The position numbers were made by a program, and so were the translations under genes. A stretch of DNA of 64,000 nucleotides from NCBI GenBank assembly GCA_964458595.1, contig CAYWJQ010000003.1, positions 123,116 through 187,115 on the forward strand. Reading direction: 5' to 3'. Shown in pieces: positions 4,205 through 41,592 of this stretch. The DNA comes from an uncultured Thermoplasmata archaeon. GTDB taxonomy: Archaea > Thermoplasmatota > Thermoplasmata > Halarchaeoplasmatales > Halarchaeoplasmataceae. The stretch's first letter is position 1, and every line of letters starts with the position of its first letter. The notes under the pieces are model-generated. The model saw only the letters and a program-made list of their open reading frames with translations. It had not been told where the DNA came from and made no database searches.

Positions 4205-5211
4205 TGTGTTATTCGCGAATTATTTCGTTTCAATATCATCACCCCTTTCAATCATTTCAAAGAAGTTTCCAAGAATGTAAGATCGAAGCCTTTTCCAGAA
4301 TACTTCTTCAGGAGTTCGAATATCTAGACTAAAATGAGGTTTGATTTCGTTGTACCAATCAATGAAATCATCGATTGAATCAAACCTATATCGATGCTTT
4401 TCATACGTATCAAACCATTTCTCGATCTTGCCATTGCTTTGAGGGTGATTATACTTGCAGAGCAGATGTTTGATTCCTTTTTCCTTGCAGTAGTTCTCAA
4501 AAGAATGATCAGCTTCTCCGTCCTTGTCTCTTTTGTTAGCGTAAAATTCTGTACCATGATCAGTTATCACTTCTCTAATCGATCTTACATGGCTGTACTT
4601 CTCGAATGCTTCATTTAGCAATTCTATAGAAGCTTCAGCGCTTCTACTATCATACTCTCCTGCGGAGAGTATTTTACGACTAGAATCGTCTAATACAGCA
4701 CAGATCCACTTACCATGCTTGTTTTGATGCCAGTCCATATGTACAGCAGATAAGCTGTGATTCCGTTCATATCTGACCCAGGGTTTCTTTCTTCCCTTTT
4801 TGTTGTCATTTTCTCTAGCCATATTATTCTCCAACAATACTTCATGGACTTTACTATCAGCAATTTTTACATCGTCTTTTTTTCTAAGATATTTTGCTAT
4901 CAAAGTTGCTCCCATCTGAAATTCTTTACTCGTCTGGATTATCCGCTCTTCAATATCTTTAGGATAATCAGCGTATGGTTTTCTACCAGGTTTTTTCAGC
5001 ATCGGAATTTTGCCAGTTTCTCTATACTTCTTAACCAACTGTTGAATGCGACGTTGACTCACATCAAAGTCTTTCGTTACTTGTTCAGTCGATAATCCTT
5101 CATCAACCACCCATGTCACTATTTTCCTGACATCATCGTCTTCTAGAGTCATTGAATGATTAGTATCATCACTACTTAAATCTTGACGAAATAATTCGCG
5201 AATAATACAAC
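4205..5211 (-). mobile_element. IS481-family-like insertion sequence (~1.0 kb) with imperfect terminal inverted repeats and a single DDE transposase ORF
   Basis: IRL TGTGTTATTCGCGAATTATTTCG (4205-4227). The reverse complement of IRR (5187-5211) is GTTGTATTATTCGCGAATTATTTCG, with 19 identical terminal-proximal bp. It encloses one ORF with HTH + rve/DDE integrase core and is flanked by the 13-bp direct repeat. Confidence 0.65.
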
Positions 5212-5227
5212 TGAGCCAAGCCATCAA
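4220..5227 (-). CDS. DDE transposase (HTH + integrase/rve core), IS481-like
   Basis: HTH region LEDDDVRKIVTWVVDEGLSTEQVTKDFDVSQRRIQQLVKKY. Catalytic core HMDWHQNKHGKWICAVLDDSSRKIL ... ITDHGTEFY ... NHPQSNGKIEKWFDTYEK (D, D, E with the typical N-x-G-K-IE-R/K motif). The ORF-track start at 5227 overlaps the IR/DR. The likely real start is the internal Met at ~5152 (MTLEDDD). Confidence 0.75.
   Translation of the reverse strand: MMAWLSCIIRELFRQDLSSDDTNHSMTLEDDDVRKIVTWVVDEGLSTEQVTKDFDVSQRRIQQLVKKYRETGKIPMLKKPGRKPYADYPKDIEERIIQTSKEFQMGATLIAKYLRKKDDVKIADSKVHEVLLENNMARENDNKKGRKKPWVRYERNHSLSAVHMDWHQNKHGKWICAVLDDSSRKILSAGEYDSRSAEASIELLNEAFEKYSHVRSIREVITDHGTEFYANKRDKDGEADHSFENYCKEKGIKHLLCKYNHPQSNGKIEKWFDTYEKHRYRFDSIDDFIDWYNEIKPHFSLDIRTPEEVFWKRLRSYILGNFFEMIERGDDIETK
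5212..5224. repeat. Right copy of 13-bp direct repeat TGAGCCAAGCCAT flanking the IS
   Basis: Identical to 4192-4204. Confidence 0.5.
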
Positions 5228-21470: not shown

Positions 21471-24400
21471 TTGTGTTATAATTTTTTAACCGTAATCTTA
21501 TTTAACCTGTCATCTATTAAGATTGGAACGAGTTCACGCGCGAAAAGTTCGTTTAAATACGGAGGTATAATCACGTCAGAATTAGCTCATTCTAAAGAAA
21601 TTGAAGATTATTTCCAAACCTTGGAAGAAGAAGCCGAGAGCTGTTATGAACTTGCGAAAAAGGCTAGGTCGAAAGGATACGATCCCCAGAAAGAAGTCGA
21701 GATCCCGAGAGCGGAAGATCTAGCTCTTAGAGCTCAAAAGTTGACTGAAGTTGAAGATACCGCGGAAAAGATAAGAGAATTGAGCGAGAAGTACGAAAGA
21801 GAAGAAGTGTCTATCAGGATCGCTAAAGAAGTCGCGTCCAGGGACGAGGGCACCATAGCCGAAAGGCTGGAGGATGCGGTCAGGATCGGATTGGCCGTTC
21901 TCACGGAAGGAATACTCGTGGCCCCCTTAGAAGGTATAGGAGGCGTAGATATAAGAGAAAACAACGACGGTAGTAAGTATGCAGAATTATCTTTTGCTGG
22001 ACCTATACGTTCTGCCGGAGGTACCGGTCAAGCCATGAGTGTGCTCATAGCGGACGTGGTTAGAAGAGAGCTCGGGATCGATGGGTTCCAGCCTACGCCT
22101 GCGGAGATACAGCGTTTCAAGGAAGAGATACCATTGTACAAAAAATCTCTAGGCCTGCAGTATACACCCTCCCCTGAAGAGATATCTTTGATAGTGGACG
22201 GATGTCCGGTCAGTATAAGCGGAGAGGGTACGGGAGAAGAAGAGGTCTCGGGAAACAGAGATCTGCCGAGGGTCGATACTAACCGGGTGAGAGGCGGAGC
22301 GTGTCTAGTCATCGCGGAAGGGATGTGTCTAAAAGCTAAAAAATTGAAAAAATATGTAGAAAAACTCGACATCGAGGGATGGGAATTTATAGACGAATAT
22401 ATAGAGAAACACGCTACTGGAGACAAAGACGACTCAGAAGATTCTGACGAAGATGGGGAGGAAGAGGATAAAGGTATAGCTCCCAAGAAAAAATACATCC
22501 AGGAAACTATCGCGGGAAGACCCGTTTTCGGTCATCCCAGCAAGGAAGGCGGTTTTAGATTGAGATATGGTAGGACTAGAACAGAGGGTCTCGCCGCCGT
22601 CGCGGTCAATCCGGCGGCAATGTACCTTACCGATGAATTCTTGGCTCTAGGAACGCAGATCAAAACCGAACGTCCCGGGAAAGCCGGGGCTATAACTCCA
22701 TGTGATACAATAGAGGGCCCTACCGTTTTGCTCAAAGATGGAACCGTTAAAAGAGTCGATTCTGCGGAGGAGAGTAAAGAACTTCAGAGGAAAGTCGAAG
22801 AGATAATCGATCTGGGAGAGATACTGGTCCCTTTCGGAGAGTTCGTGGAAAATAATCATCCTCTAGTTCCCGGGGCTTACTGTCACGAGTGGTGGGTTCA
22901 GGAGGTGGACGAAGATTTTGAGGAGGAAGAAATCACACCTAAAAAGGCTGTAAACCTTTCGCAAGAGAAAGGGTATCCATTACATCCAAAGTACATCCAC
23001 TTCTGGGATTATGTTGACACTCAAGATATCAGAGAACTCAGGAGTTGGATATCCGATGAGGGAGAGATAGAAGAGGATAGGTTGAAACTGCCGGTAGAAC
23101 AGCAGATGAAAGAGATCCTGGAATCTATCGGTGTCCCGCACGAGAAAGATGATGAGAGTATAATTATAGAAATCTACGAACCGTTTATTTTCTCTCTCGC
23201 CCTCGATGAAGAGAGTCTCAGCAAAACAGGAGAATCTAACGAAGATCGACCATTAGAGTATATCAGTGATCTAGCGGGTGTAACCATAAGGAGTAAGGCT
23301 CCTACAAATATAGGTTCTAGGATGGCGAGACCAGAAAAAGCGAAGGAAAGAAAGATGAGTCCGCCAGTACACGGGCTTTTCCCACTCGGTGACGCCGGCG
23401 GATCGGAAAGACTGGTAAAAAAGGCGGTCGAAGAAGGCATCATAGAGGTAGATATCAGTGCGAGAAGATGTCAAAAATGTGGGAAAAGCGGTGCCCAGAT
23501 CAGATGTACCTGCGGCGGTCGAAGGGAAATAATCGACGAACCGCAGGAACAGAAGATCCCGATGAAAAACATATACAGACAGGCTTTGAATACTCTTGGA
23601 GAAGGGGGAAACATCAGCAAGATAAAAGGAGTTAAAGGTCTCATCACCGAGACCAAAACTCCAGAAGCGCTCGAAAAAGGCATCTTGAGAGCTAAACACG
23701 GCATCTACGTCTTCAAAGACGGTACTTCAAGATATGACATGACGGATCTTCCTCTCACACATTTCAAACCTGAAGAGATAGGTTTGACCGTGGAGAGGGC
23801 TAGAGAACTCGGATATGAAAAAGATATAGATGGTAACGAGTTAGAAAGAGAAGACCAAGTGGTAGAGTTGAAGCCGCAGGATATGGTGATAGCGAATGAA
23901 GCCGGCGAGTACATGGTGAAAGTGGCTGAGTTCGTAGATGATCTATTGGAAAAGTATTATGAATCTGACAAGTACTATAATGCGGAATATAAAGAAGACC
24001 TGATAGGAGAGTTAGTGGTAGGTTTAGCACCTCATACTTCCGGTGGAGTACTCGGCAGGATAATAGGATTTCACGACGGTAGAGCAGGATACGCTCATCC
24101 TCTCTTCCATGCAGCGAAAAGACGGAACTGTCTTCCCGGTGATACGGAAGTTAAGATGGCAGATGGAGGTACCGTAAAGTTAAAAGAGCTCTATGATAGA
24201 GCACACGGGGAGGAAGAGATGGATTCTGTAGGTACCACTGGAAAGGAAATTGAAGAAGAAGTCCTCACAGTCAATGGAAGTGAAATACAAACTTCTAAAG
24301 CGTCCAAAGTGATCAAAACACCCGCACAGGAATTCAAGATCGAGATCGAAACGGAGTCGGGCAGATCAATGGAAGTCTTCCCGGATCACAGGATGAAAAC

Positions 24401-26300
24401 CGATGACGGAATAAAAAAAGCTCGAGAACTTGAAGAAGACGATAGGATATATACCCCTCTACAGATAGATGTTAAAACCGACGATAAAGAAACTCTCGAT
24501 CTGCTTGAATTTATTCCAAACCACAAAAATGTGATGATCAGGCAAGTAGAGAAAAGGGTAAATGAGGCTATAGAAGAACTCGGTGGATTGAAATCTGCTG
24601 TCGAAGAGCTGGGCATATCGAAAAAGACTCTAGGCAATTACAAGTATCGTGAATCCATTCCTTTGAACGTCTACCGAGAGCTGATGGAAAAGGCGGGATC
24701 GAAGAACTCTATTTCCGGAGACGCGGTTCTAGCGGCGAAGAGAGATGCAGTGGAGATACCTCCAAAAATAGATGTGAATTCTGACTTGATGAAAGTGCTG
24801 GGATATTATCTGGCCGAAGGTTATACCAGGAAATCTGAGAAAAAAGGAGAAGAATTTTACCAAATATGCTTTGCCTTCGGGGAAGACGAGATGAAAGATA
24901 ATATCAAAGAGGTTGTAGAAGAAACGTTTGGAATCGAACCGTCTGAAGAGGAGAATGTTTTAACGCTGAGTTCTCGGTTGATATATGAGTTATTTCAGTC
25001 GTTAGAGATAGGATCGGGAGCTAGAGAGAAGAGGGTTCCGGAATTCGTGAGCTCACTGCCGAAAGAGAAAGTTTCGGACCTGCTCTCGGCTTATTTTGCT
25101 GGGGATGGATCGGTGGAAAAAGGATGTCTTCATGTTCAGGCAACTAGTGTATCTCGAGGATTGTTAGACGATATCGATTTCCTTTTGAAGAGGTTCGGTA
25201 TTTACGCCCGCTACAGCCAAAATGAGAGAGAAGCTGGGGGGATATTGACAGAAAAATATGGTGAGGATCACTACGAGGGAAGGACCTTCACTACCAATAA
25301 GCTTCATATCAGGTCATCTCACGCCGTAAAGTTCGGAGAGAAGATAGGATTCGATCTGGAAAGAAAAAATGAAGCCTTGAAAGAAGATTTTTCTTTAGAG
25401 AGAAAACCGAGGATAGACACTTCGGGTAATCTGGTGAAGGAGCGAATTAGAGCTAAAGAGCCCAAAAAATCCGATGAAGAGTTCATGTATGATATTGAAG
25501 TGGATGACACCCACAACTTCGTTACCAAGGATAATCTGATAACGAACAACTGCGACGGAGATGAGGACTGTATAATGCTCCTTTTGGACGGCCTTCTTAA
25601 CTTCTCCGAAGATTTTTTACCGGAGAAAAGAGGAGGTCTGATGGACGCTCCACTAGTTCTAACCACGAAAATAGATCCTTCCGAGATCGACAGCGAAGCT
25701 CACAATGTGGATACGGTTTGGGATTATCCCCTAGAATTCTACGAGAAAACTTTCGAATATCCGAAGCCCAAAAAGGTGGGCGACTTGATAGAGACCTTGG
25801 AGGATAGATTGGAGGATGAAACCCAGTACGAGAATTACGGTTACACACATGAAACGAGTAGATTAGACGAGGGGCCCAGCACCAGCCGATATACTAGACT
25901 TGGAAAGATGACAGAGAAGATGGATTCGCAGATCAAGGTAGCGGATATGATAAACGCTGTGGAAACCAAGGATGTGGTGAGTAGAGTCATAAGCGATCAT
26001 TTCATCCCCGACCTGATAGGCAATCTCAACAAGTTCGGCGTCCAGGATATAAGGTGTACGAAATGTAACACCAAGTATCGAAGGATACCGCTGAGCGGCG
26101 AGTGTAAATGTGGAGGAAATCTAACTCTGACCATACATGAAGGCAGCGTGAAAAAGTATCTCAACTTTTCTCTAGAGATGGTCGAAAAATACGAAGTATC
26201 GGAATATCTTTATCAGCGTGTGAAACAGCTTAACAGACAGATAGAATCCTTGTTTGAAAATGATAAGGTATCCAATCCGAGTCTTGACGAGTTCTGCTGA
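21471..26300 (+). CDS. polC: DNA polymerase II (PolD) large subunit DP2, interrupted by one intein
   Basis: Canonical DP2 motif HAAKRRN|CDGDEDC, split by a 474-aa insertion. DP2-like N-terminal region and C-terminal Zn-finger clusters (CTKCNTKYRRIPLSGECKCGG). The N-terminal 35 residues at the ATG at 21471 look non-native, so the true start is uncertain. Confidence 0.85.
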   Translation: MCYNFLTVILFNLSSIKIGTSSRAKSSFKYGGIITSELAHSKEIEDYFQTLEEEAESCYELAKKARSKGYDPQKEVEIPRAEDLALRAQKLTEVEDTAEKIRELSEKYEREEVSIRIAKEVASRDEGTIAERLEDAVRIGLAVLTEGILVAPLEGIGGVDIRENNDGSKYAELSFAGPIRSAGGTGQAMSVLIADVVRRELGIDGFQPTPAEIQRFKEEIPLYKKSLGLQYTPSPEEISLIVDGCPVSISGEGTGEEEVSGNRDLPRVDTNRVRGGACLVIAEGMCLKAKKLKKYVEKLDIEGWEFIDEYIEKHATGDKDDSEDSDEDGEEEDKGIAPKKKYIQETIAGRPVFGHPSKEGGFRLRYGRTRTEGLAAVAVNPAAMYLTDEFLALGTQIKTERPGKAGAITPCDTIEGPTVLLKDGTVKRVDSAEESKELQRKVEEIIDLGEILVPFGEFVENNHPLVPGAYCHEWWVQEVDEDFEEEEITPKKAVNLSQEKGYPLHPKYIHFWDYVDTQDIRELRSWISDEGEIEEDRLKLPVEQQMKEILESIGVPHEKDDESIIIEIYEPFIFSLALDEESLSKTGESNEDRPLEYISDLAGVTIRSKAPTNIGSRMARPEKAKERKMSPPVHGLFPLGDAGGSERLVKKAVEEGIIEVDISARRCQKCGKSGAQIRCTCGGRREIIDEPQEQKIPMKNIYRQALNTLGEGGNISKIKGVKGLITETKTPEALEKGILRAKHGIYVFKDGTSRYDMTDLPLTHFKPEEIGLTVERARELGYEKDIDGNELEREDQVVELKPQDMVIANEAGEYMVKVAEFVDDLLEKYYESDKYYNAEYKEDLIGELVVGLAPHTSGGVLGRIIGFHDGRAGYAHPLFHAAKRRNCLPGDTEVKMADGGTVKLKELYDRAHGEEEMDSVGTTGKEIEEEVLTVNGSEIQTSKASKVIKTPAQEFKIEIETESGRSMEVFPDHRMKTDDGIKKARELEEDDRIYTPLQIDVKTDDKETLDLLEFIPNHKNVMIRQVEKRVNEAIEELGGLKSAVEELGISKKTLGNYKYRESIPLNVYRELMEKAGSKNSISGDAVLAAKRDAVEIPPKIDVNSDLMKVLGYYLAEGYTRKSEKKGEEFYQICFAFGEDEMKDNIKEVVEETFGIEPSEEENVLTLSSRLIYELFQSLEIGSGAREKRVPEFVSSLPKEKVSDLLSAYFAGDGSVEKGCLHVQATSVSRGLLDDIDFLLKRFGIYARYSQNEREAGGILTEKYGEDHYEGRTFTTNKLHIRSSHAVKFGEKIGFDLERKNEALKEDFSLERKPRIDTSGNLVKERIRAKEPKKSDEEFMYDIEVDDTHNFVTKDNLITNNCDGDEDCIMLLLDGLLNFSEDFLPEKRGGLMDAPLVLTTKIDPSEIDSEAHNVDTVWDYPLEFYEKTFEYPKPKKVGDLIETLEDRLEDETQYENYGYTHETSRLDEGPSTSRYTRLGKMTEKMDSQIKVADMINAVETKDVVSRVISDHFIPDLIGNLNKFGVQDIRCTKCNTKYRRIPLSGECKCGGNLTLTIHEGSVKKYLNFSLEMVEKYEVSEYLYQRVKQLNRQIESLFENDKVSNPSLDEFC
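24129..25550 (+). other. Intein (474 aa) with LAGLIDADG homing-endonuclease domain inserted in DP2 at the conserved RRN/CDGDED site
   Basis: Starts CLPGDTEV (Cys1) right after AAKRRN. Two LAGLIDADG-type motifs (LGYYLAEGYT, LSAYFAGDGSV). Ends ...HNFVTKDNLITNN, followed by extein C (CDGDEDC). Confidence 0.75.
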
Positions 26301-26316
26301 TTCCTCACCAATAAAA

Positions 26317-27333
26317 TCAACCGAAAGAGGAAAGACTGCTCTGCTTTCTCTTCTTCATCCCTTCTTCATACTTTTCTAGAGCCGACTCTATTCTCGATTC
26401 GGAAAAGTCCCTTTCATCGCAGAGAAACCCTTTCACGTTTCCTAGTTCGGTTTCGAAATCGATAGAGTAGTCGGTTTTAACCTCGGGCTTCAAAAATATT
26501 TTTTTAATAGCTTCGTGATTTTCAACCTTCTTATCTTTTTCTTGGAGAACGGTTTCTAAATCGCCGTGTTTCTTAACGTACTTCAATCCTCTTTTCGGCC
26601 CTATACCTTTGACGCCGTCATTATAATCGGTTCCGCACAGTATCCCGATATCTACCAACTGTTCTCTATTTATCTCCAGTTCTTCCAGCACCTTTTCGAG
26701 TTCTATCAATTCCAGACTGATATCTTTATATTTCGAAGAACCGGGCATCTTTCTCTTACCGGTTATCGTGAGGTTTTTCACGAGTCGAGGAGCGCCGAAC
26801 AGTAATGTGTCATAATCCTGTCCACCAACCGACCAAGCGTCTCCTTCTCTAACCATGTGGGCGGCCTGACTTTCACCTTCAGCGGGGGCTTGAATCCAGG
26901 GTATCGCTAAAAGCGACAAGAGCTTTTTACTGCTCTCTTCGATCTCGTCCGTCATCCTGGAAGTTTGCTGAGCTTTCATCCTAGCTCTTTCCAGATCCCC
27001 TTCTTCTAGAGCTTTGTCATATTCTTTTTCAGCCTCTTTCTTTCTCTCTTTTCTTTTCTCCAAAGTTCCTTCTTTCATCACGTCGGGAGCACCGTCGAAA
27101 ACATATACGGGTTTGATCCCGGCTTCTATCAGATTCGCGTTTCTGTAGAGTAAGCCCGACAGATGTGAGGTAACTCTTCCTTCAGAATCTTTCAATAATT
27201 CTCCGTCCCTCTGCCTTATACTGGATAAAAATTGATATATTATGTTGTAAGCGTCTACCGCGATAACTTTATCTTCCATATCTTCGAAATCTATCTCTTC
27301 CCTCTGAATTATATCTCCTATTCCCACGCCCAT
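26317..27333 (-). CDS. fen: Flap endonuclease 1 (FEN-1)
   Basis: MGVGIGDII...KVIAVDAYNIIYQFLSSIRQRDGELL...SHLSGLLYR is the FEN-1 N-domain. Also contains the I-domain and HhH region. Confidence 0.85.
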   Translation of the reverse strand: MGVGIGDIIQREEIDFEDMEDKVIAVDAYNIIYQFLSSIRQRDGELLKDSEGRVTSHLSGLLYRNANLIEAGIKPVYVFDGAPDVMKEGTLEKRKERKKEAEKEYDKALEEGDLERARMKAQQTSRMTDEIEESSKKLLSLLAIPWIQAPAEGESQAAHMVREGDAWSVGGQDYDTLLFGAPRLVKNLTITGKRKMPGSSKYKDISLELIELEKVLEELEINREQLVDIGILCGTDYNDGVKGIGPKRGLKYVKKHGDLETVLQEKDKKVENHEAIKKIFLKPEVKTDYSIDFETELGNVKGFLCDERDFSESRIESALEKYEEGMKKRKQSSLSSFG

Positions 27334-27345
27334 CTTATGACCACC

Positions 27346-28053
27346 TTAAAAAATAGCTCCTTCCATCTGTACGTCTATCCCGTGATCCGTTATCACGAAG
27401 GGCTTGATCTTCCGAGAATGATTTATCCGCCTCATCTTTATCACCTGGACGCTCAGTTGTACTTCTTCCATATCCGATTGGTTGTATCTCAAGAGAATGA
27501 CTCCATCAGCGGTATACTCTATCAAACCGTCTCTAGAACTTTCCGGGTTCTCGTCCTTAACTTCAGCGGTCAATAGAGCTGTAGTCCCGGTATCTTTTAT
27601 CATCTTACTGAGCGCGAACAGCTGATCTCGTTTCTCCTGAGGATTACTAGCCAACATATTGAGAAGGGAAACCGAATCTATAGCGATCCTGTCCGCGTCG
27701 AAACTTTTTATGAACTCTGGAAGATCGCTCTGGATCTTGTTAATAGTGGCTTCAGCATCAGCCGGGGTAAGCTTTTTCACAGCTAATTGGTTATTATCGA
27801 TGTAAGGTTGAAAATCCCATCCGTATGATTTACCGGTCTCTATCATAGCGTTTCTATCCTCTTCTAGAGAGATGAAGATACCCGACTCCCCCTGCTGCAG
27901 ACCTTCCCATATATATTGTAATGAAAAAGTCGTTTTTCCCGTGCCGAACTGTCCCATCACGGTAAATACGTGGCCTTTCGGAATTCCACCGTTCAGCATC
28001 TCATCTAAACCATCTATCCCGGTCTTTATTTTTTCTATATCTTTTTCTTCCAT
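27346..28053 (-). CDS. KaiC/RadA-like RecA-superfamily ATPase (single domain, intact Walker A)
   Basis: GGIPKGHVFTVMGQFGTGKTTFSLQYIWEGL and ILLRY...VQLSVQVIKMRR are typical of archaeal KaiC-like ATPases. Confidence 0.7.
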   Translation of the reverse strand: MEEKDIEKIKTGIDGLDEMLNGGIPKGHVFTVMGQFGTGKTTFSLQYIWEGLQQGESGIFISLEEDRNAMIETGKSYGWDFQPYIDNNQLAVKKLTPADAEATINKIQSDLPEFIKSFDADRIAIDSVSLLNMLASNPQEKRDQLFALSKMIKDTGTTALLTAEVKDENPESSRDGLIEYTADGVILLRYNQSDMEEVQLSVQVIKMRRINHSRKIKPFVITDHGIDVQMEGAIF

Positions 28054-28057
28054 CTTA

Positions 28058-28951
28058 TCACCTGATCTTTTGATAATTTATCACGGTATAGCCCTCATAA
28101 TCGCTGACTTCCGCAGTGAATCGAGCGATCTTTTCCCTCTTCAAGTGAGGGAGAACACTCATAAACTTATCAACTAAAAGATAACGCTGCCGCTGAGAAC
28201 TTCCTGTGGTTTTTGACCATTGGAAGGAAAATACTCCATCTACACTATCTATTATCTGATATTCGAGACTTTTGTCGACTATGCTTTTTGACATCAATAG
28301 ATAGACCACTCCACCCCATTTTTTAGATGCCCTTCTCATACCCTTTATGACCATAACGAGCTTGTCTTTATCGATCGATGAGTTCGTCAATAGATCGGTA
28401 AGCGAATCTAGAATGATGACGTTATTTTCAGCGTTCTCTTCGAGAAAATGGACTAGATCCTCCAATATGTCGGAATCGGAGGAGTCTGAAAATAGGTTGT
28501 TAGAACTCATCTCGCCGGCCCAACTGGGTGGCACCATGGTCCGCTGGAAGTACTGTTTGGAGAAATCCTTGAATTCTAGATTTTCTTCTATCACGTCGTA
28601 GTAATCCTGATTAAATGAGGTTCTGACCTCGTCTAAAACATCTTCTCTCGATCGAGAAAATGTGATATAGAACACGTTTTCTGGCAGCATAGAGCCCTTA
28701 CATTCGTCCCCTAAATGTACAGAGAGATCTTCTGGTTCCTCTTTCACCCTCAATATCTTTGCGGAAGACGTGTAGGTATACTCAACGCCTCCCGCACCGA
28801 TCTCAGTGAGGAGAAGAACGACGGAACCAGCGGGTATGCCCCCTTTGATTATGGCATCTAAATCGCTAACACCAGTAGGTATCTTTTTCATGATCTTACA
28901 CCGTCGGACTACTGTCAGACAGAGCCTTCCAATATGGTATAATGGAAGCAT
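28058..28951 (-). CDS. KaiC-like fold protein with degenerate Walker A (probable non-catalytic partner)
   Basis: TGVSDLDAIIKGGIPAGSVVLLLTEIGAGGVEYTY has the same architecture as KaiC-like proteins but lacks the GK[ST] lysine. Likely start is the internal Met (MKKIPTG). Confidence 0.5.
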   Translation of the reverse strand: MLPLYHIGRLCLTVVRRCKIMKKIPTGVSDLDAIIKGGIPAGSVVLLLTEIGAGGVEYTYTSSAKILRVKEEPEDLSVHLGDECKGSMLPENVFYITFSRSREDVLDEVRTSFNQDYYDVIEENLEFKDFSKQYFQRTMVPPSWAGEMSSNNLFSDSSDSDILEDLVHFLEENAENNVIILDSLTDLLTNSSIDKDKLVMVIKGMRRASKKWGGVVYLLMSKSIVDKSLEYQIIDSVDGVFSFQWSKTTGSSQRQRYLLVDKFMSVLPHLKREKIARFTAEVSDYEGYTVINYQKIR

Positions 28952-29375: not shown

Positions 29376-32325
<2,950 letters not shown>

Positions 32326-34273: not shown

Positions 34274-37200
34274 ATGAATTCTAGTTTGCTTGGAAAGCTG
34301 ACATCGGGAAAGGAGAACCCCTCCTCCAGCCCTTCGTGGCTAGAGAAACACTGGGATACCACAGCATGTCTGTTAGGTATCTTCGTAGTTGCATTGATAA
34401 TCCGTTCGTACTTCGCCTATGAAGCGGCTACAAAGTTCGGATTACCTTATCTCTTAGGAGGAGGAGCCGACTCATATTACAATGCTAGAATAATCAATTA
34501 TATCGCAGAGACTCACCACCATCTTTTTACTGATCCATTGAGAGGATATCCCTTACCAGGGTTAAAAAATACTCGTCCCCCGCTCTATCAATGGTCGGTC
34601 GTGTTAGGAGGATATCTTCTATCTCCTTTTGTAGGTAGCCTGGAAAAAGCGATAAACATTTCATTCATTTTCTCATCTGCCTTCTGGAGTGCGATGACCG
34701 TTTTCCCCGTTTATCTGATAGGGAAGAAAACGTTCGGAAAGAAGGCAGGAATAGCTGCAGCACTGATGTTGACTCTCAGCGCAGCTCATCTTGGAAGAGG
34801 TGTTTTGACCAACACCAACCACGACGCCTTTTCGATGTTCTGGATCGTTACCGGTTTCTTTTTCTTCATGCGCTCTCTTGAAGAGATAAGGAGCGAAGAA
34901 AAGTGGGTTTCAGACTGGATGAAAGTCGAAGAGATCAAGAAGGGATTAGCAAAATTTTTCGGGAGCAACAGAAGAGCTCTCTTATACTCGGCAATGACGG
35001 GTATGGTGCTCGGGGCTCTAGCCTTAACCTGGAAAGGTTATTCCTACGCCCTTGTGATCATATTGGTCTACTTTTTGGTACAGATTGTTATCGATAAATT
35101 CAGAAAGAAAGATTCTCTCGGTATAACGGTAGCGATTTTCGTAATGATGATGATCGCATTCTTTGTGGCCTTACCATGGTATGCTAAAACGAGCGGTGGT
35201 TTTGCCCTGTTAGAAAAATTCACCACTTTAATCCAATGGCCACTTGGAAGGTATTATCAAATTCCTTTCGTGATATTCCTAGGAACTTTCGCTATCGGTG
35301 CTTATTTTTCAGTCACCCGAGACCTTCCTTGGGTGTTGACTTTTTCGATCCTTATCTTGGCAGGAGTACTATTTTTTACTTTGGGACCCAACGTTATCAG
35401 AAATGCAGCCTCTCAATACTTCATCCAGAATAAATTATATTCGACGATCGCAGAGGCTCAAGCACCCTCGTTCAGTCGCTTGGTTTTGTCGACAGGTCTC
35501 GTGACATCCTTCCTTTCCTTTATAGCCATCCCTCTCGCCGGATGGCATCTCAAGAAAACTTGGCGGAGGTCATTTTTGTTCGTATTAGTTTGGCTTACAT
35601 TTGCTATCTATATGGCTACAACCGCTACCAGATTCATATTCAATGCCGCTCCGGCTTTTGCTCTAACGTCGGGATGGATGATCGCCTTGATGTTCGATAA
35701 AGCTAACTTCTCCAGCGTGGTAAGAGGTTTCAAAAGTCATAGAGGCAACGTTATAAGAGGTATCCGCGAGGGTGTGAAGATAAAACATGTTTTGGTAACT
35801 CTTTTCGTTGTTTTCTTGATACTAACCCCCAATGCTTTGTATGCCATAGACGCGGGCATTCCTTTCCAAGAGAAGCAGAAGTACAATGAACAGGTCTATA
35901 GAGTCCTACCTCAACAACTGAGGCCGGACGATTATGATCCAGATAAAGGTGGTCTACATTATCTGGGTGCTTTCGGCTACAGTATGGATAGACCGACTCA
36001 ATATTGGCCGGGAGCTTGGGATTGGTTCAGCCAACAAGACGATGAGGTACCGCCCAAAGAGAGGCCTGCGTTCGTGAGTTGGTGGGACTATGGATTCGAA
36101 TGCATTAATCGAGGAAAACATCCCACCGTAGCTGACAACTTTCAGCACGGTTATAGGTTCACTGGTAACGTTTTGATGTCTCAAAACGAATCTGAGATGA
36201 TGGCATTACTGGTAGGAAGACAATTACAATTGCCTTATCGCCAGGAAGGAGCGTTCGAAGGAAAGGTCCGCGCCATCTTGGTGGATCATATAGGGAAAAA
36301 GAAAACGGAAAAACTGGAAAATATCTATGAACATCCGAATACCTATAAAGATGAGGTACTATCTAACCCGGATAGATATCATCCCAGGGCCAAAGACATA
36401 GGCAGGAGAAACGTTATGTGGGCGATGGTCATGGGCACTTTATCTTATGAAGATCTGAAAACATTGAACTCTCTTTACAGAGATATAAGTTACAATTCAG
36501 GTTATGAGAGACTCGAAAATAGAATGGGATATATAGCTGTAGATTCAAGGATGTTCCCGACCTCTGGCAGAGATACAGGCATTTTCCACGCCCCAGCTTA
36601 TCTTTCTGGCCATCGTATGAAAACCGTTGGTCGTACTAGAGCTCCCGTGGACTTTTATTCTTTCGAATTCATCGATGCTCGAGGGCGGGCATATGATGAT
36701 CCCGAAGAAGTTCCAGAAGGCGCTAGAATAACAAGACAAAGGATAAAATACAAGCAGATGTTCTTCAATACTGCGTTGTACAGGATCTTCGCAGGATTTG
36801 GAAAACATGAAGTGGGGGAAGGTGAAAAGGGCATACCAGGCTTGTCTAGAACTAGAGGAAGAAGACGGCCGCTCAAACCCATGCCGAGCTGGAATATGAC
36901 CCATTTCAAGACCGATTATAGAACTGCATATTTCAATCCTTATCCGAACAAGAAGGTCCAGAATCATTCAGAGGCTTGGGAAGCGATAAGTTATGATAAA
37001 GGCATAGATCTTCAGGATAATAAGAATGTCACCGTAGATTTGAGCAGCAGGAGCTATATGAGGCAAGGAGTGATATTCGTCCGATACTACGACGGCGCTA
37101 TCTTGAAAGGCCAGGTCGAAACGGAAGGCGGAGAACCGATCCCTAATGCAAAGGTGACCGTATATGACACCTCCGGAAATAGATATACACCACATCATGT

Positions 37201-40200
37201 CACCACTACTGATAGCCAGGGAAATTATAGAGCTATACTTCCACCTGGAAATGTAACCGTATTGGCGTCCACTGGCGGTGGTGGAAGAGAAATGCTGAAG
37301 AAGGAGCAGACCCTTCTAGGCAATGAACAGTACGAGATATCGGAGGAACAAGCATTAAGAAGACGGATCGATAGAAACGGAGACGGTCGCTGGGATTATA
37401 AACTTCAGAAGGACTTTGAAGTCAAACCGGGAAAAATATCAGGCAAAGTGTTTTTAGATAGAGGTGACGATGGGTCCTTCGATAAAACTAACGATACACT
37501 TTATCAGGAGAATGGTAAAGTCAAAATCAAAAATAAACAGAGTGATATCAAATATACGACTACGGTGCAGAATGGGACTTATGAATTTTCCAATGTAGTT
37601 CCGGGCAATTATACTGTCAATAGTTCGATCCCGGGAAGTCCTAATGCGAGGGAGATTCTCCTTAAACCCGACGCAGAAAAATCGAAAGATATACCTCTTT
37701 CCGTCGGAAAGATAGGAGGCAATATCACTTACGGCGGAGAGGTGGAGAAAGGTGAAATAACGCTGTCGATCGAGGGTACAGATAAAAAGAAACAATTGAA
37801 TCTTGGCGAGACCGATAGTTTCGAATTCTTAGATCTCCCATTCGGAAAACACACTTTAAGTATAGAAGATGAAGGATACGCTCTCAGATATGGTCCATCG
37901 GGATACAATATACAGGATACAAAAAAGATCAATAGGAATCTGCAAGTGGTGAAAGCTTACCGATTAGAGGGTCGAGTGACAAAAGAGGGCGAACCGCTTA
38001 CTGATCAGAAACTTACCGTATTAGGAAAGAGATATGATAGAGTGATCACGACCGATCAGGATGGTCAATTTAGTATAAAAGTACCTAAGGGCAGATATCA
38101 AATATACGGCATCAATAGAGAGGGGGAAGATGTCTACGTCACTTTAGATGATGTCACAGTAGATTCCTCCACCAATTACCACGGCAAATTCGAAAAGGGT
38201 TATAGATTGACTGGCAGCGCGGTGCATAAAGGCGAGGCACTCAACAGAGGTGAGTTATTCATAAGGGGTAGAACAGGTGAAGAGTACTATATCACTACTA
38301 ATCCGCAGGGAAGATTCAAAGTCTATCTTCCTAAAGGATTTTACGAGCTTTATGGTTGGAAGAAATTCGGTTTCCGTCAACCTAATAGAAATACAAAATT
38401 TTACTGGGAGGATATAACGCTAGATAGTGATACGGAAGTCAAATTGGATTCCTCAAACGCATCTTTAGAGGAGGGCAAAGTTATCCGGGATATCCACAAT
38501 TCTGAAGAAGAAGGTGAAGGAATATTCACTGATATACATATATCATGTGGAGGAAGAACTTTCACGACGAGCACCACCATAGATGGTAATTATTCCTTAT
38601 ATTTACCCAACCAAAGATGCACATTCACTATAGATAAGGAAGGTTATCATAAAAAAGTCTTGACAGTGAATCCTGTAAGAGATGTTCAAGAGGATATCTA
38701 TCTTAATGCGAAAAATGTCTCCGTAGAAGGAGATATAGACTTCGATAGAGAGTCCGTGGGTAAATTAACTCTCAGGTTCGTACCTGAAGACGGCGGAGCT
38801 GTCGCTAAAGAGATAACTGTAGATGGTAATGAGTACAGCGTAGATCTCCAGCCGGGCGATTACAAGATAGTTAGTGATCACTTCCTAGAAGATTCTAACG
38901 CTAAATATGAGATATCAGATTCGATATCTATCGAACCTGGGGAAGAAAATATTCAGAACGATCTTTCCGCCCGATATAGAGTGAAAGTTCAGGGCGATAT
39001 TGAGATTTTAGATGCAGATGAATCTCCCACGGCAAATATCTACTTCCAAGGTCTAGAAGATGAGATGATCACTGCTAATGGTTCTTACGCGACATACTTG
39101 ATCCCTGGAAATTATTCCGTGAGAGCTGTACACCCAAGAGGTCATCGCTCGGTACAGAAAAAAGTTAAAGTCGAAGGGCTTACGAGTACTGATTTCACAC
39201 TGGAAGAGACCTATTCGGTAGATGCAAAATTAAAGGGACTTCGAAAACCAGGTATTCCAGTCTATTTCAGAAATAAAGAAACGGGTTTCGTCATCAAAAC
39301 ACTCAGCGGTGTTGACGGCGAATTGAATCTCAATATAACCTCTGGAAATTATGAGATAACAGTTAATCACGTGATAGAAGAACAGGTCAGAGGAGTCAAA
39401 AGGAAGGTTAAATATCACCTTACCGAGCAGCATTCTACTCCTATTTCAGGTATGTTGGAATTAGAGAAGAAGGTCCTACATTCAACACTAAGGGGCGAGG
39501 TTAAATTGGAAGGTAGTTATATAAGCGGCGCGGATATCGAAATAAAGTCCGACGATAAAGTTTTCGATGTCCAGTCTAACGAAAACGGAAAATACAGCAT
39601 AGACGAAGTGATACAAGGTCGATATACTGTATACGCTTCTTATCAAGCCCAAGGAGAAACCTACACTTACTTCGAGAGTTTCAAGATGCCCGCTGAAAAT
39701 AAGTCCATGGATATCACCCTAGAAAAATCCCACATACTCTCCGGGAAAGTTACCTTAGACGGTAAAGGGATCCAGACCGGACTTAAAGTAGTAAAGGGCT
39801 CCGCTAGAAAACAATTCGATACTTCACAGGACGGAACTTTCAGAATCGAACTGCCCAAGGGGAGATATTCCATAACTGCAAGCGAAACGAGAGAGATGAA
39901 ATACGGGACGACCGAATTCCAGTATTCGGCTAGTTTTGAACTCAACCACGACGAGTCAAGAAATATCCAACTCAAGAAGGTCAAAGAATATGGTATAAAG
40001 GCGGAAGGACTAGAGACCAAACAAGCATCTCAGGGCGAGGTCATAGAGTATACCGTTCAGATATCGAATACCGGGAATACACCCGACGAATACGGATTAT
40101 CGGCTGAAAAGTCGAAATGGGATATAGATTTCACCCCTCAAAATATTTCCCTGCAGCCGAATGAAAAGGCTGAAGTCAACATCAGGGTAAAAGTTGGAGA

Positions 40201-40780
40201 GAACGCTACAGTTGGGGAAACCGTCAAATTCACCGTTACTTCACACAATTCTGATAAAAAAGTCAAAAAAGAGATTCCGATCAATATAAAGCAGATACAC
40301 AGAGTTGACCTCTATTCTGAAGCCCAGGACAAGAAATATGGGAACGGCAAGTTCACTTATTCTGTGAAGATTAAGAACGGAGGAAACGGACAGGATTCTT
40401 ATCAAATCGAAGTCGCGAATAGAAAAACGTTGAAAAGTAGTGGTTGGAATGTAACCGTTCCAAATAAAGTAGAAGATGTCGGTGCCCATAAAGAGAAATC
40501 TGTCGAAGTGAAATTACGATCAATTTCATCCAAACCGAAGAGATCAGTCAAGTTAGAACTGATGGTGGTCTCGGAAGGAGATAGCACGAGAAAAGATACG
40601 GAAACATTTACCACTACTCTACCGGAGATCACCGGAGATAGAAACAAAGTAGGCTTTTCAGGGACCAAGATGGTATTGGAAAAACAGCCCTTCAAATTAT
40701 CTAACTGGCATTGGGGCGGGATAGTCATTTTGGTTGCGATTGTAGCCCTATATGTGATGAAGAAAAAGAGGTGGCTCTGA
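34274..40780 (+). CDS. aglB: Giant (2168 aa) AglB/STT3-type oligosaccharyltransferase fused to a ~1250-aa C-terminal array of beta-sandwich (carboxypeptidase-regulatory/PEGA/CARDB-DUF11-like) domains ending in a second TM anchor
   Basis: N-terminal multi-TM region with GGADSYYNAR (first DxD-type motif), catalytic WWDYGF motif (FVSWWDYGFECINRGKH) and a DK-like region. Then repeated ~90-aa modules (e.g. GKVFLDRGDDGSFDKTND, TVQNGTYEFSNVVPGNYTV, GRVTKEGEPLTDQKLTVLG, EYTVQISNTGNTPDEYGLSAEKSKWDIDF...VKFTVTSHN). Terminal WHWGGIVILVAIVALYVMKKKRWL. One continuous frame in the ORF track. Confidence 0.7.
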   Translation: MNSSLLGKLTSGKENPSSSPSWLEKHWDTTACLLGIFVVALIIRSYFAYEAATKFGLPYLLGGGADSYYNARIINYIAETHHHLFTDPLRGYPLPGLKNTRPPLYQWSVVLGGYLLSPFVGSLEKAINISFIFSSAFWSAMTVFPVYLIGKKTFGKKAGIAAALMLTLSAAHLGRGVLTNTNHDAFSMFWIVTGFFFFMRSLEEIRSEEKWVSDWMKVEEIKKGLAKFFGSNRRALLYSAMTGMVLGALALTWKGYSYALVIILVYFLVQIVIDKFRKKDSLGITVAIFVMMMIAFFVALPWYAKTSGGFALLEKFTTLIQWPLGRYYQIPFVIFLGTFAIGAYFSVTRDLPWVLTFSILILAGVLFFTLGPNVIRNAASQYFIQNKLYSTIAEAQAPSFSRLVLSTGLVTSFLSFIAIPLAGWHLKKTWRRSFLFVLVWLTFAIYMATTATRFIFNAAPAFALTSGWMIALMFDKANFSSVVRGFKSHRGNVIRGIREGVKIKHVLVTLFVVFLILTPNALYAIDAGIPFQEKQKYNEQVYRVLPQQLRPDDYDPDKGGLHYLGAFGYSMDRPTQYWPGAWDWFSQQDDEVPPKERPAFVSWWDYGFECINRGKHPTVADNFQHGYRFTGNVLMSQNESEMMALLVGRQLQLPYRQEGAFEGKVRAILVDHIGKKKTEKLENIYEHPNTYKDEVLSNPDRYHPRAKDIGRRNVMWAMVMGTLSYEDLKTLNSLYRDISYNSGYERLENRMGYIAVDSRMFPTSGRDTGIFHAPAYLSGHRMKTVGRTRAPVDFYSFEFIDARGRAYDDPEEVPEGARITRQRIKYKQMFFNTALYRIFAGFGKHEVGEGEKGIPGLSRTRGRRRPLKPMPSWNMTHFKTDYRTAYFNPYPNKKVQNHSEAWEAISYDKGIDLQDNKNVTVDLSSRSYMRQGVIFVRYYDGAILKGQVETEGGEPIPNAKVTVYDTSGNRYTPHHVTTTDSQGNYRAILPPGNVTVLASTGGGGREMLKKEQTLLGNEQYEISEEQALRRRIDRNGDGRWDYKLQKDFEVKPGKISGKVFLDRGDDGSFDKTNDTLYQENGKVKIKNKQSDIKYTTTVQNGTYEFSNVVPGNYTVNSSIPGSPNAREILLKPDAEKSKDIPLSVGKIGGNITYGGEVEKGEITLSIEGTDKKKQLNLGETDSFEFLDLPFGKHTLSIEDEGYALRYGPSGYNIQDTKKINRNLQVVKAYRLEGRVTKEGEPLTDQKLTVLGKRYDRVITTDQDGQFSIKVPKGRYQIYGINREGEDVYVTLDDVTVDSSTNYHGKFEKGYRLTGSAVHKGEALNRGELFIRGRTGEEYYITTNPQGRFKVYLPKGFYELYGWKKFGFRQPNRNTKFYWEDITLDSDTEVKLDSSNASLEEGKVIRDIHNSEEEGEGIFTDIHISCGGRTFTTSTTIDGNYSLYLPNQRCTFTIDKEGYHKKVLTVNPVRDVQEDIYLNAKNVSVEGDIDFDRESVGKLTLRFVPEDGGAVAKEITVDGNEYSVDLQPGDYKIVSDHFLEDSNAKYEISDSISIEPGEENIQNDLSARYRVKVQGDIEILDADESPTANIYFQGLEDEMITANGSYATYLIPGNYSVRAVHPRGHRSVQKKVKVEGLTSTDFTLEETYSVDAKLKGLRKPGIPVYFRNKETGFVIKTLSGVDGELNLNITSGNYEITVNHVIEEQVRGVKRKVKYHLTEQHSTPISGMLELEKKVLHSTLRGEVKLEGSYISGADIEIKSDDKVFDVQSNENGKYSIDEVIQGRYTVYASYQAQGETYTYFESFKMPAENKSMDITLEKSHILSGKVTLDGKGIQTGLKVVKGSARKQFDTSQDGTFRIELPKGRYSITASETREMKYGTTEFQYSASFELNHDESRNIQLKKVKEYGIKAEGLETKQASQGEVIEYTVQISNTGNTPDEYGLSAEKSKWDIDFTPQNISLQPNEKAEVNIRVKVGENATVGETVKFTVTSHNSDKKVKKEIPINIKQIHRVDLYSEAQDKKYGNGKFTYSVKIKNGGNGQDSYQIEVANRKTLKSSGWNVTVPNKVEDVGAHKEKSVEVKLRSISSKPKRSVKLELMVVSEGDSTRKDTETFTTTLPEITGDRNKVGFSGTKMVLEKQPFKLSNWHWGGIVILVAIVALYVMKKKRWL

Positions 40781-41592
40781 TGAAGTGGAAAAAAACAACG
40801 ATATTCGTTATAGCGATAGTCTTTCTTATGGTTATCAGCGGTTTTTCGGGAATGCAAGTTACCAAAGGCGCGGAAAAAGACGATAGGATTAATCCATTAG
40901 TCGATGGACCTGAAGAAGTCTTTGTGAATGTCACTGAAGTTTATCAAGTCGAAATAAAGGGGGTATTCGAGGTAAACGGAAATATAGTGGATGTAGAGAA
41001 TGCTAACAACTGGACGCTCAAAACGGAGTCCAGTCTCGATGCTACGGTAAAACCGAAAGAACAGGAGTCCTCGACGAGTAACCACTTCACCGTTAACGTC
41101 ACAGTACACGAAGCAGGTAAAGGATATCTGAACATCACGGCATATTGTGGTAAAAAGGGAAAAGTCTCTTATTCTGAAAAACAGGTTAGAATCAAAGCTG
41201 AAAAGCCTCAAAAAACCACCGTTCCTATAAACAATCCAACGAATACCACGGTTGAAGAGATGAGATTAGGACTGTTCATAGACGGTAAAAGAAAGAGCAC
41301 TATAACGGTCACCGATTTAAAATCGGGAGAAGAAAAAACAGTCACATTCAAGTGGTCGAAGAGCGGCTTGAGTTCCGGCGAACATGATTTAGAAGTTTGG
41401 GTTGATTACGGCGTATCTGCTGATTCAAGTGGTTTTACTAAACAGGATCAAGTGATAGATAGTAACTTCCATGTAAAAGGGGAAACGAATACCCTTCTCT
41501 ATGGAGGTATAATAGCGGCTGTAATAGCTAGTGGTTTCGTAGTGTTCTTATTGTATCAACAAAGAAAAAGAAAACGACGGAGACCTTGGTGA
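40780..41592 (+). CDS. CARDB-domain membrane/surface protein, translationally coupled (TGATG overlap) to the AglB-fusion gene
   Basis: Start ATG at 40780 overlaps the upstream TGA stop (ctcTGATGaag). N-terminal signal/TM (MKWKKTTIFVIAIVFLMVISGFSG). CARDB-like module (MRLGLFIDGKRKSTITVTDLKSGEEKTVTFKWSKSGLSSGEHDLEVWVDYG). C-terminal TM + poly-basic tail (LLYQQRKRKRRRPW). Confidence 0.55.
   Translation: MKWKKTTIFVIAIVFLMVISGFSGMQVTKGAEKDDRINPLVDGPEEVFVNVTEVYQVEIKGVFEVNGNIVDVENANNWTLKTESSLDATVKPKEQESSTSNHFTVNVTVHEAGKGYLNITAYCGKKGKVSYSEKQVRIKAEKPQKTTVPINNPTNTTVEEMRLGLFIDGKRKSTITVTDLKSGEEKTVTFKWSKSGLSSGEHDLEVWVDYGVSADSSGFTKQDQVIDSNFHVKGETNTLLYGGIIAAVIASGFVVFLLYQQRKRKRRRPW

Follow-up and report, generated by a model that had tools for sequence, protein, structure and literature searches.

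A giant predicted AglB with a conserved extracellular array and a coupled partner protein in Thermoplasmatota

AglB, the hallmark enzyme of N-glycosylation in archaea, has been described as a single-subunit enzyme of about 600 to 1,000 residues. Here, we analyze a gene for a giant predicted AglB of 2,168 amino acids (aa), and the small gene that follows it, in a 64,000-nucleotide stretch of contig CAYWJQ010000003.1 from an uncultured Thermoplasmata archaeon; this whole stretch is referred to below as the window. The eukaryotic oligosaccharyltransferase (OST) combines Stt3 with noncatalytic type-I subunits, such as ribophorin I/Ost1 and OST48/Wbp1, as in the structures 6S7O and 6EZN. AglB has also been described as associated with the archaeosortase A sorting system. 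Archaeal OSTs were stated to be single-subunit enzymes in a 2021 structural paper, which gives a length of 868 aa for AglB-L of A. fulgidus (AfAglB-L) (PMC8342417). NOMO, a subunit of the BOS complex at the endoplasmic reticulum (ER) translocon, consists of 12 prealbumin-like domains and a C-terminal anchor, and its partners are Nicalin and TMEM147 (PMC11186639).

The giant AglB shares with AfAglB-L (3WAJ, 5GMY, and 7E9S) an STT3-type domain, two acidic motifs, TIXE, WWDYG, a catalytic domain, and a first beta domain (D1), although the sequence similarity is visible with a family profile only. AfAglB-L stops after its beta domain, whereas the giant protein adds an insert, 12 beta-sandwich domains, a membrane anchor, and an operon partner. 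The eukaryotic OST resembles it in joining an STT3 homolog to beta-rich lumenal or extracellular modules, each of which is held by one C-terminal membrane helix that has a short basic tail; the main module here is instead fused to the catalytic chain, and the fold of the partner gave no match to any OST subunit. The eukaryotic accessory subunits offer a possible functional analogy only, and no homology is claimed. Like NOMO (PDB 9C7V), the giant AglB carries about 12 prealbumin-like domains in a string, followed by one C-terminal membrane helix. NOMO, however, is a type-I protein in its own right and has a signal peptide, while the array described here is fused to AglB, lacks a signal peptide of its own, and ends in two CARDB-type domains.

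No description of this architecture was found in the full-text literature, a coverage outside of which the AglB survey of Nikolayev et al. (2020) lies, and it goes unmentioned in a 2024 review of archaeal N-glycosylation (PMC11407970). An earlier note on this DNA, made from the sequence, had called the fusion undescribed for AglB, and within the searchable literature we found no paper that describes it. Members of the family appear in databases as "carboxypeptidase regulatory-like domain-containing protein," "glycosyltransferase family 39 protein," "peptide transporter," or "dolichyl-phosphooligosaccharide-protein glycotransferase." With such misleading names and many truncated entries, the family can be missed by surveys of AglB length and distribution.

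The AglB portion and the integrity of the gene

Sequence comparison identifies the gene product as the oligosaccharyltransferase AglB of a halophilic Thermoplasmata archaeon, and it identifies the giant AglB with its partner as a conserved two-gene form in much of Thermoplasmatota. The gene and its canonical part comprise the following features.

34274..40780, + strand: giant AglB gene, 2,168 aa plus stop, one ATG-started frame, with an identical product on a second contig and 59 colinear orthologs
34274..35953, + strand: N-terminal multipass STT3-type membrane domain, aa 1 to 560 (PF02516, family profile, hydropathy)
34457..34480, + strand: first acidic catalytic motif GGGADSYY (D66); G64, D66, and Y69 invariant in 16 homologs
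34817..34831, + strand: second DXD-position motif NHDAF (H183-D184), both residues invariant in 16 homologs
35444..35455, + strand: TIXE motif T391-I-A-E394 in external loop 5, invariant in the family
35954..37084, + strand: extracellular catalytic globular domain, aa 561 to 937, with a weak AglB_core-like match and matches to the AfAglB-S soluble domains 3VU0 and 3VGP
36080..36097, + strand: WWDYGF catalytic motif, aa 603 to 608; W603-W-D-Y-G607 invariant in homologs

The Pfam STT3 model (PF02516) matches aa 65 to 516 with 54.5 bits against a cutoff of 24.5, and a hydropathy scan of the region before aa 526 gave 13 peaks, part of them overlapping, that amount to about 11 distinct segments. 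The top NCBIfam model is TIGR04154 (archaeo_STT3), an AglB subfamily associated with the archaeosortase A system, for which the 202.4 bits fall far below the cutoff of 450. A family profile matched A. fulgidus AglB-L (3WAJ/5GMY) over residues 3 to 594, which hold the membrane domain and WWDYG, with an E value of 1.7e-43. In the profile alignment, GGGADSYY pairs with GGNDPWYY of AfAglB-L, H183-D184 with NDHH, and T391-E394 with TIAE at positions 357 to 360. These motifs correspond to the OST motif set listed in PMC8342417, where the role of the TIXE motif is also given. WWDYG was present in 115 of 116 sequences, each at least 2,000 aa long and chosen for WWD. The WWDYGF and N-terminal DxD-type motifs that the earlier note had reported were thus both found, at aa 603 to 608 and at D66 of GGGADSYY. 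The DK/MI region is more divergent: it reads SQNESEMMALL, compared with AQSEEEAMKIV in AfAglB-S1 and a family consensus of SQSExEAIALL, with Ala or Leu at the Lys position. It could be an MI-like variant. Four N-glycosylation sequons at aa 638, 874, 897, and 993 (window positions ∼36185, 36893, 36962, and 37250) are kept in 34 to 43 of 60 aligned sequences, and their conservation in the catalytic domain and D1 suggests that the giant AglB is itself N-glycosylated. Judged by these comparisons, the N-terminal ∼1,000 residues constitute a complete long-type AglB that has every catalytic motif open to testing, along with a single prealbumin-like domain.

A trivial explanation for the length of the protein would be an assembly or annotation artifact in which a normal AglB had been fused to a downstream surface-protein gene. 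Database homologs recovered at the first search were 750 to 1,460 aa long, many of them labeled "partial," and at first sight resembled shorter genes. They are fragments, however, which result from contig ends, a scaffold N-gap, or frameshifts. A 68%-identical ortholog (P0001, 1,351 aa; locus L003) halts at scaffold Ns, and its frame across the gap comprises 2,177 codons; the order of genes there is as in the window, with a Trp/Tyr-type tRNA synthetase, the giant gene, a small CARDB gene, and a Met-tRNA synthetase on the opposite strand. The tail of P0014 (955 aa) is frameshifted. P0012 (1,450 aa) is followed, with an 8-nt overlap, by an open reading frame (ORF) of 912 aa that ends in a helix and basic tail, and its contig name includes "pilon," a polishing step, suggesting an error-prone long-read assembly. 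Three further loci (L027, L047, and L071) hold shorter ORFs that are apparently frameshifted or truncated.

The lengths of intact orthologs decide the matter. An AglB-core alignment was scanned against one genome per species, yielding at least 578 relatives, from which the best 80 loci were kept. ORFs of 2,000 to 2,500 aa (range, 2,053 to 2,449) occurred at 59 of the 80 and entered the alignment; in four of them, the contig edge removes the 5′ part. The remaining 55 lie entirely within their contigs, and each is a single frame of 2,082 to 2,449 aa that ends in a hydrophobic helix and Arg/Lys. In addition, the identical 2,168-aa protein is encoded on an independent contig, CAJOUK010000035.1 (GCA_905333435.1). 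Together, the ortholog lengths and the second contig exclude an artifact, to which we assign a negligible probability. The uninterrupted frame is present exactly as the earlier note described it, and the comparison of homolog lengths, which that note had proposed as a check, gave a single long frame at all 55 loci complete on their contigs.

The beta-sandwich array

Beyond the catalytic domain, the chain continues through 13 beta-sandwich domains (D1 to D13), interrupted by one insert.

37085..37291, + strand: D1, prealbumin-like, aa 938 to 1006 (CarboxypepD_reg, 48.4 bits), counterpart of the AglB-L C-terminal beta domain
37292..37441, + strand: 50-aa insert between D1 and D2, aa 1007 to 1056, motif QA[LM]R...D..GDG..DY, recognizable in 47 of 59 orthologs
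37442..40000, + strand: D2 to D11, ten prealbumin/CarboxypepD_reg-like domains, aa 1057 to 1909 (Pfam per-domain scans and AlphaFold2 model)
40001..40633, + strand: D12 and D13, CARDB/FixG_C-type immunoglobulin (Ig)-like domains, aa 1910 to 2120 (FixG_C, 32.5 and 18.9 bits), NTGN motifs invariant

Eleven of the domains are prealbumin/CarboxypepD_reg-like, and the last two are CARDB/FixG_C-type Ig domains. The Ig/CARDB-like repeat array of the earlier note is therefore real as an array of beta-sandwiches, but the CARDB label fits its last two members only. That note had also placed the AglB/repeat junction at 36.9 to 37.2 kb. D1 pairs with residues 684 to 826 of AfAglB-L, the second stretch of the profile match, and since it aligns with the C-terminal beta domain of that enzyme, the noncanonical extension begins at about aa 1007 and not at 940.

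CarboxypepD_reg accounts for 164 bits summed over seven stretches from aa 944 on. Lesser Pfam matches were to SdrD_B, NOMO_5th, and SpaA and, near the C terminus, to FixG_C and other Ig-like families. Within D2 to D11, whose inner boundaries are approximate (aa 1148, 1232, 1313, 1400, 1485, 1573, 1650, 1740, and 1823), per-domain scans gave D2, D4, D6, D8, D10, and D11 a Pfam match of their own. D3, D5, D7, and D9 had none and were assigned from the all-beta model and cross-domain matches. The NCBIfam model choice-of-anchor T (choice_anch_T) scored 68.1 bits over aa 2000 to 2113, just under its cutoff of 70. An AlphaFold2 model of the array, built with 34 sequences, is all-beta with a terminal helix and has a mean predicted local distance difference test score (pLDDT) of 86. 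The 50-aa insert gave no match in a Pfam scan; it is better conserved than the neighboring repeats. It may bind a metal or act as a contact element.

With the family profile, NOMO2 was the solved structure that matched the repeats best (E = 1e-25). When the C-terminal half was used as a single-sequence query against PDB sequences, nothing was found; the family profile alone reached NOMO2 and AfAglB-L. The NOMO_5th model scored 42.9 bits over the whole giant AglB (cutoff, 27) and 18.3 bits on D2 alone, and no window ORF scanned matched a Nicalin-like or TMEM147-like family. The resemblance to NOMO reflects a widespread family of domains, and by sequence the protein does not belong to NOMO/BOS.

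The array is widespread and highly regular. An exhaustive search with aa 970 to 2168 against 1.84 billion representatives returned 88 proteins at E values of 1e-30 or lower, and WWDYG was present in 65 of the best 148. About 45 clusters (50% identity) contain proteins of at least 2,000 aa, and up to ∼2,775 aa, with WWDYG, nearly all of which end in a helix and a basic tail; the interquartile range of length in the 116 long sequences is 2,161 to 2,215 aa. Stand-alone array proteins, which would be a sign of recent fusion, were sought in this search, and none were found: matches of 1,250 to 1,300 aa are fragments whose starts fall inside D1 or the soluble domain of AglB. The orthologous loci are spread over Halarchaeoplasmatales, Methanomassiliicoccales, the DHVE2 group, and numerous Thermoplasmata without classification. 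The giant protein is not peculiar to this organism but is the standard AglB of a large share of Thermoplasmatota.

When the window protein and its 59 orthologs were aligned over their full length, the array was colinear, with gaps of 0 to 7% per 50-aa block and 14% in a single block. Identity to the window protein is ∼16 to 31% in the array compared with 24 to 61% in the AglB core. Individual domains mainly matched the domain at the same position (D1 in 59 of 59 orthologs, D7 in 36, D11 in 42, D12 in 55, and D13 in 51), and for the window domains such matches far outnumber those to other positions. By these alignments, domain number, order, and positional identity are conserved across orders; the array is old and fixed in domain number, with each domain individually constrained, and is no recently expanded or variable stalk. 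Position-specific matches, tight length, and the all-beta model together indicate a defined architecture as opposed to a floppy stalk.

A genuinely short form occurs in a soil lineage (L085/L086, P0020), where two independent contigs encode a 1,117-aa protein that has only three or four of the prealbumin-like domains and neither anchor nor partner. It may represent an intermediate or a reduced state. A GT4 glycosyltransferase gene adjoins it on the opposite strand. Two loci with a Thermoplasmatota-type AglB truncated at the contig end (L035 and L053) are in bins labeled "Candidatus Paceibacterota bacterium" and "uncultured bacterium" and are probably misbinned archaeal contigs.

The C-terminal tether, the partner gene, and the host

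Two features close the locus.

40634..40777, + strand: linker, SNWHWGG motif, membrane helix (aa ∼2142 to 2164), and tail KKKRWL (sequence, hydropathy, AlphaFold2)
40780..41592, + strand: partner gene, 270 aa, with an ATG that overlaps the stop of AglB by one base (TGATG)

The C terminus of the giant AglB reads ...WHWGGIVILVAIVALYVMKKKRWL (...SNWHWGGIVILVAIVALYVMKKKRWL). The AlphaFold2 model places the terminal helix at aa 2142 to 2164, ahead of the tail KKKRWL, so the hydrophobic helix and basic tail noted earlier are seen in both sequence and model. The chain reenters the membrane by this single helix, and we take the basic tail to be cytoplasmic. In the window clade, a TW[HQ]W-type motif stands ahead of the helix and the tail ends in RKKRW[ILF]. 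In Halarchaeoplasmatales (L004 to L016), the AglB tail RKKRW[ILF] (40760-40777) and the partner tail RRRPW (41563-41589) share a terminal Trp, while the other clades examined have plain basic runs or other motifs at the ends of AglB and its partner.

A sub-lineage of 2,230 to 2,480 aa, represented by 8 of the 116 long sequences (two of them identical), ends differently, in IPGFE or PSFE, a helix, and RRR. By its sequence, this ending is a PGF-CTERM-like archaeosortase signal, and we know of no report of AglB itself carrying a PGF-CTERM signal. The presence of a helix and basic tail in 55 of 55 complete ORFs, together with this replacement in the sub-lineage, indicates that a second tether has been selected for.

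The same sub-lineage raises the question of whether the C-terminal helix of the window protein is likewise cleaved by an archaeosortase-like enzyme and exchanged for a lipid, which would leave the mature end lipid tethered or released. Its ending also has three parts, a conserved motif (SNWHWGG; TW[HQ]W in the clade), a helix, and a basic cluster, and D13 resembles choice-of-anchor T, a family named for the varied anchors that follow it. On the other hand, SNWHWGG and no PGF motif precedes the helix, and Trp residues at the membrane interface are common in ordinary anchors. No archaeosortase gene was detected among the window ORFs scanned, although the window covers only 64 kb. We consider such processing improbable, and it would alter the chemistry of the tether while leaving the doubly tethered topology unchanged. 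With either type of tether, the array's distal end stays at a membrane.

This topology bears on the suggestion in the earlier note that the array might act as an adhesin or host-contact structure, which would matter most in an episymbiont. Long Ig-like arrays are typical of adhesins, and the Pfam matches include SdrD_B and SpaA. With both ends in the membrane, however, there is no free distal tip, and the fixed domain count and positional orthology across orders are unlike the usual variable adhesin stalks. Nor does the host fit. The closest relatives of the giant AglB are in Thermoplasmatota metagenome-assembled genomes (MAGs), namely, Ca. Natronoplasma sp. (65%) and MAGs from salt and soda lakes (65 to 68%). 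Ca. Natronoplasma belongs to Thermoplasmata, order Ca. Halarchaeoplasmatales, and the host is accordingly a halophilic Thermoplasmata archaeon and not a member of DPANN. The same protein occurs in methanogens and in DHVE2-group MAGs, which are taken to be free-living. The acidic proteome and DPANN-like signals to which that note had pointed are contradicted by taxonomy and composition; the array is not markedly acidic (15.2% Asp plus Glu versus 13.7% Lys plus Arg). An adhesin or host-contact role is therefore very improbable.

The coupled partner gene had been left out of the earlier description of the locus. Its product is predicted to begin with a signal peptide, to continue through two Ig-like domains, the second of them CARDB, and to end in a membrane helix and the tail RKRKRRRPW; the AlphaFold2 model of this product has a pLDDT of 84.8. 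Immediately after the giant AglB, 49 of the 59 loci encode a candidate of 225 to 300 aa whose C terminus has a hydrophobic helix, and 42 of the 49 are sequence homologs of the partner (E ≤ 4e-6). Where the start call is unambiguous, the partner begins at −3 to +6 nt of the AglB stop, in Methanomassiliicoccales and DHVE2 as well. Gene layout and sequence identify the partner, which is ∼260 aa long across the loci, as a translationally coupled small type-I membrane protein. Partner proteins carry a median of six sequons, two positions of which are kept in ∼75% of orthologs; in the window's partner, these are NWT at aa 77 and NVT at aa 106. We also considered whether the partner might be a duplicate of D12-D13 and the anchor, but there is no detectable similarity.

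No glycosylation gene cluster was found near the giant AglB when the window ORFs were scanned, and the neighbors are housekeeping genes. The window also encodes primase, Trp/Tyr-, Met-, and Leu/Ile/Val-type tRNA synthetases, and one tRNA-Gly. Several other elements of the window were recorded as follows.

29381-32321, + strand: complete archaeal 23S rRNA gene standing alone, without an adjacent 16S or 5S gene; ORFs listed within it (e.g., 30380-30748 and 31866-32141) are spurious
21471-26300, + strand: DNA polymerase D large subunit (DP2) with an intein that carries a LAGLIDADG endonuclease domain, ∼aa 896 to 1359
27346-28951, − strand: two neighboring KaiC/RadA-like ATPase genes, beside FEN1 (26317-27333)
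4220-5227, − strand: rve-type integrase/transposase in a low-GC stretch (0.37 to 0.39 at 4 to 8 kb), which may be an insertion element
730-3147, − strand: 805-aa protein, probably a further surface protein, in which GLUG motifs are numerous and one domain is InlB B-repeat-like

Function of the array and its meaning

The degree of conservation of array, tether, and partner implies a function beyond catalysis. We favor, at a probability of roughly 50%, a working AglB that carries its own extracellular scaffold, tethered at both ends, and has an accessory partner. We infer that the giant AglB moves lipid-linked glycans to Asn-X-Ser/Thr of exported proteins, as other AglBs do. We propose that the array, with its two tethers and position-specific domains, arches over the active site or stands next to it as a scaffold of defined form outside the cell. 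In this proposal, the terminal helix and that of the partner would pack onto the AglB membrane domain and, by analogy, might form a built-in equivalent of the noncatalytic type-I subunits of the eukaryotic OST. The scaffold could hold nascent substrates or neighboring export machinery, or it could stabilize the enzyme. Consistent with a link between scaffold and partner, the partner is missing beside the 1,117-aa short form, which has no anchor.

Several observations weigh against such an assembly. The DK/MI region diverges, with its Lys position replaced. The array model has a predicted template modeling score (pTM) of 0.40, which leaves the relative arrangement of the domains unfixed. Foldseek searches of that model against the PDB returned only generic multi-Ig proteins at low template modeling (TM) scores, with no OST subunit and no global match, and those of the partner model returned only generic tandem Ig folds at a TM score of ∼0.25, again with no OST subunit; the generic matches of the two models included transglutaminase barrels, chaperone-usher and HYDIN-like proteins, alpha-2-macroglobulins, and NUP210. 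The enrichment of sequons in the array is mild (16 observed versus 9.3 expected). No partner was detected at 10 of the 59 loci, and one giant lineage (L084) lacks a partner directly downstream.

The main rival to a scaffolded enzyme is a spacer or coat, in which AglB activity would be normal and the array would serve as a fixed-length hoop or strut that spaces an outer layer, or as a glycocalyx. OSTs are of low abundance and a coat needs many copies, and the lineages that carry the array appear to differ in envelope type. A pure spacer needs no fusion to an enzyme, yet stand-alone array proteins were not found in the array search. The tightly conserved length and domain number and the tethering of both ends would nevertheless suit a spacer, as would the sequons, of which the array has a modest excess and the partner a large number (median, six). 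In addition, the best solved relative of the repeats is NOMO2, and NOMO is reported to regulate the spacing of ER sheets (PMC11186639). On balance, we regard a spacer or coat as rather unlikely.

The scaffolded enzyme that we favor could be part of a broader picture, which we offer tentatively and hold to be unlikely as a whole: much of Thermoplasmatota, the gut Methanomassiliicoccales included, would possess a multicomponent OST of defined architecture, with a self-carried 13-domain scaffold that a second membrane helix closes and a dedicated type-I subunit, working together with export or envelope assembly, and this would be an independent archaeal invention of the role filled by OST accessory subunits and NOMO.

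The giant AglB is no curiosity of a single genome; it elaborates a central enzyme across a clade and under strong constraint. AglB has more than doubled in size across a major lineage that includes relatives of human-gut methanogens and deep-sea vent archaea. This raises the questions of whether archaeal OSTs act as larger assemblies, how glycosylation is coupled to export or envelope building, and whether accessory scaffolds like those of eukaryotes have arisen more than once. If the array and partner do serve as scaffold and accessory subunit, an enzyme held to consist of one subunit may operate as a larger machine.

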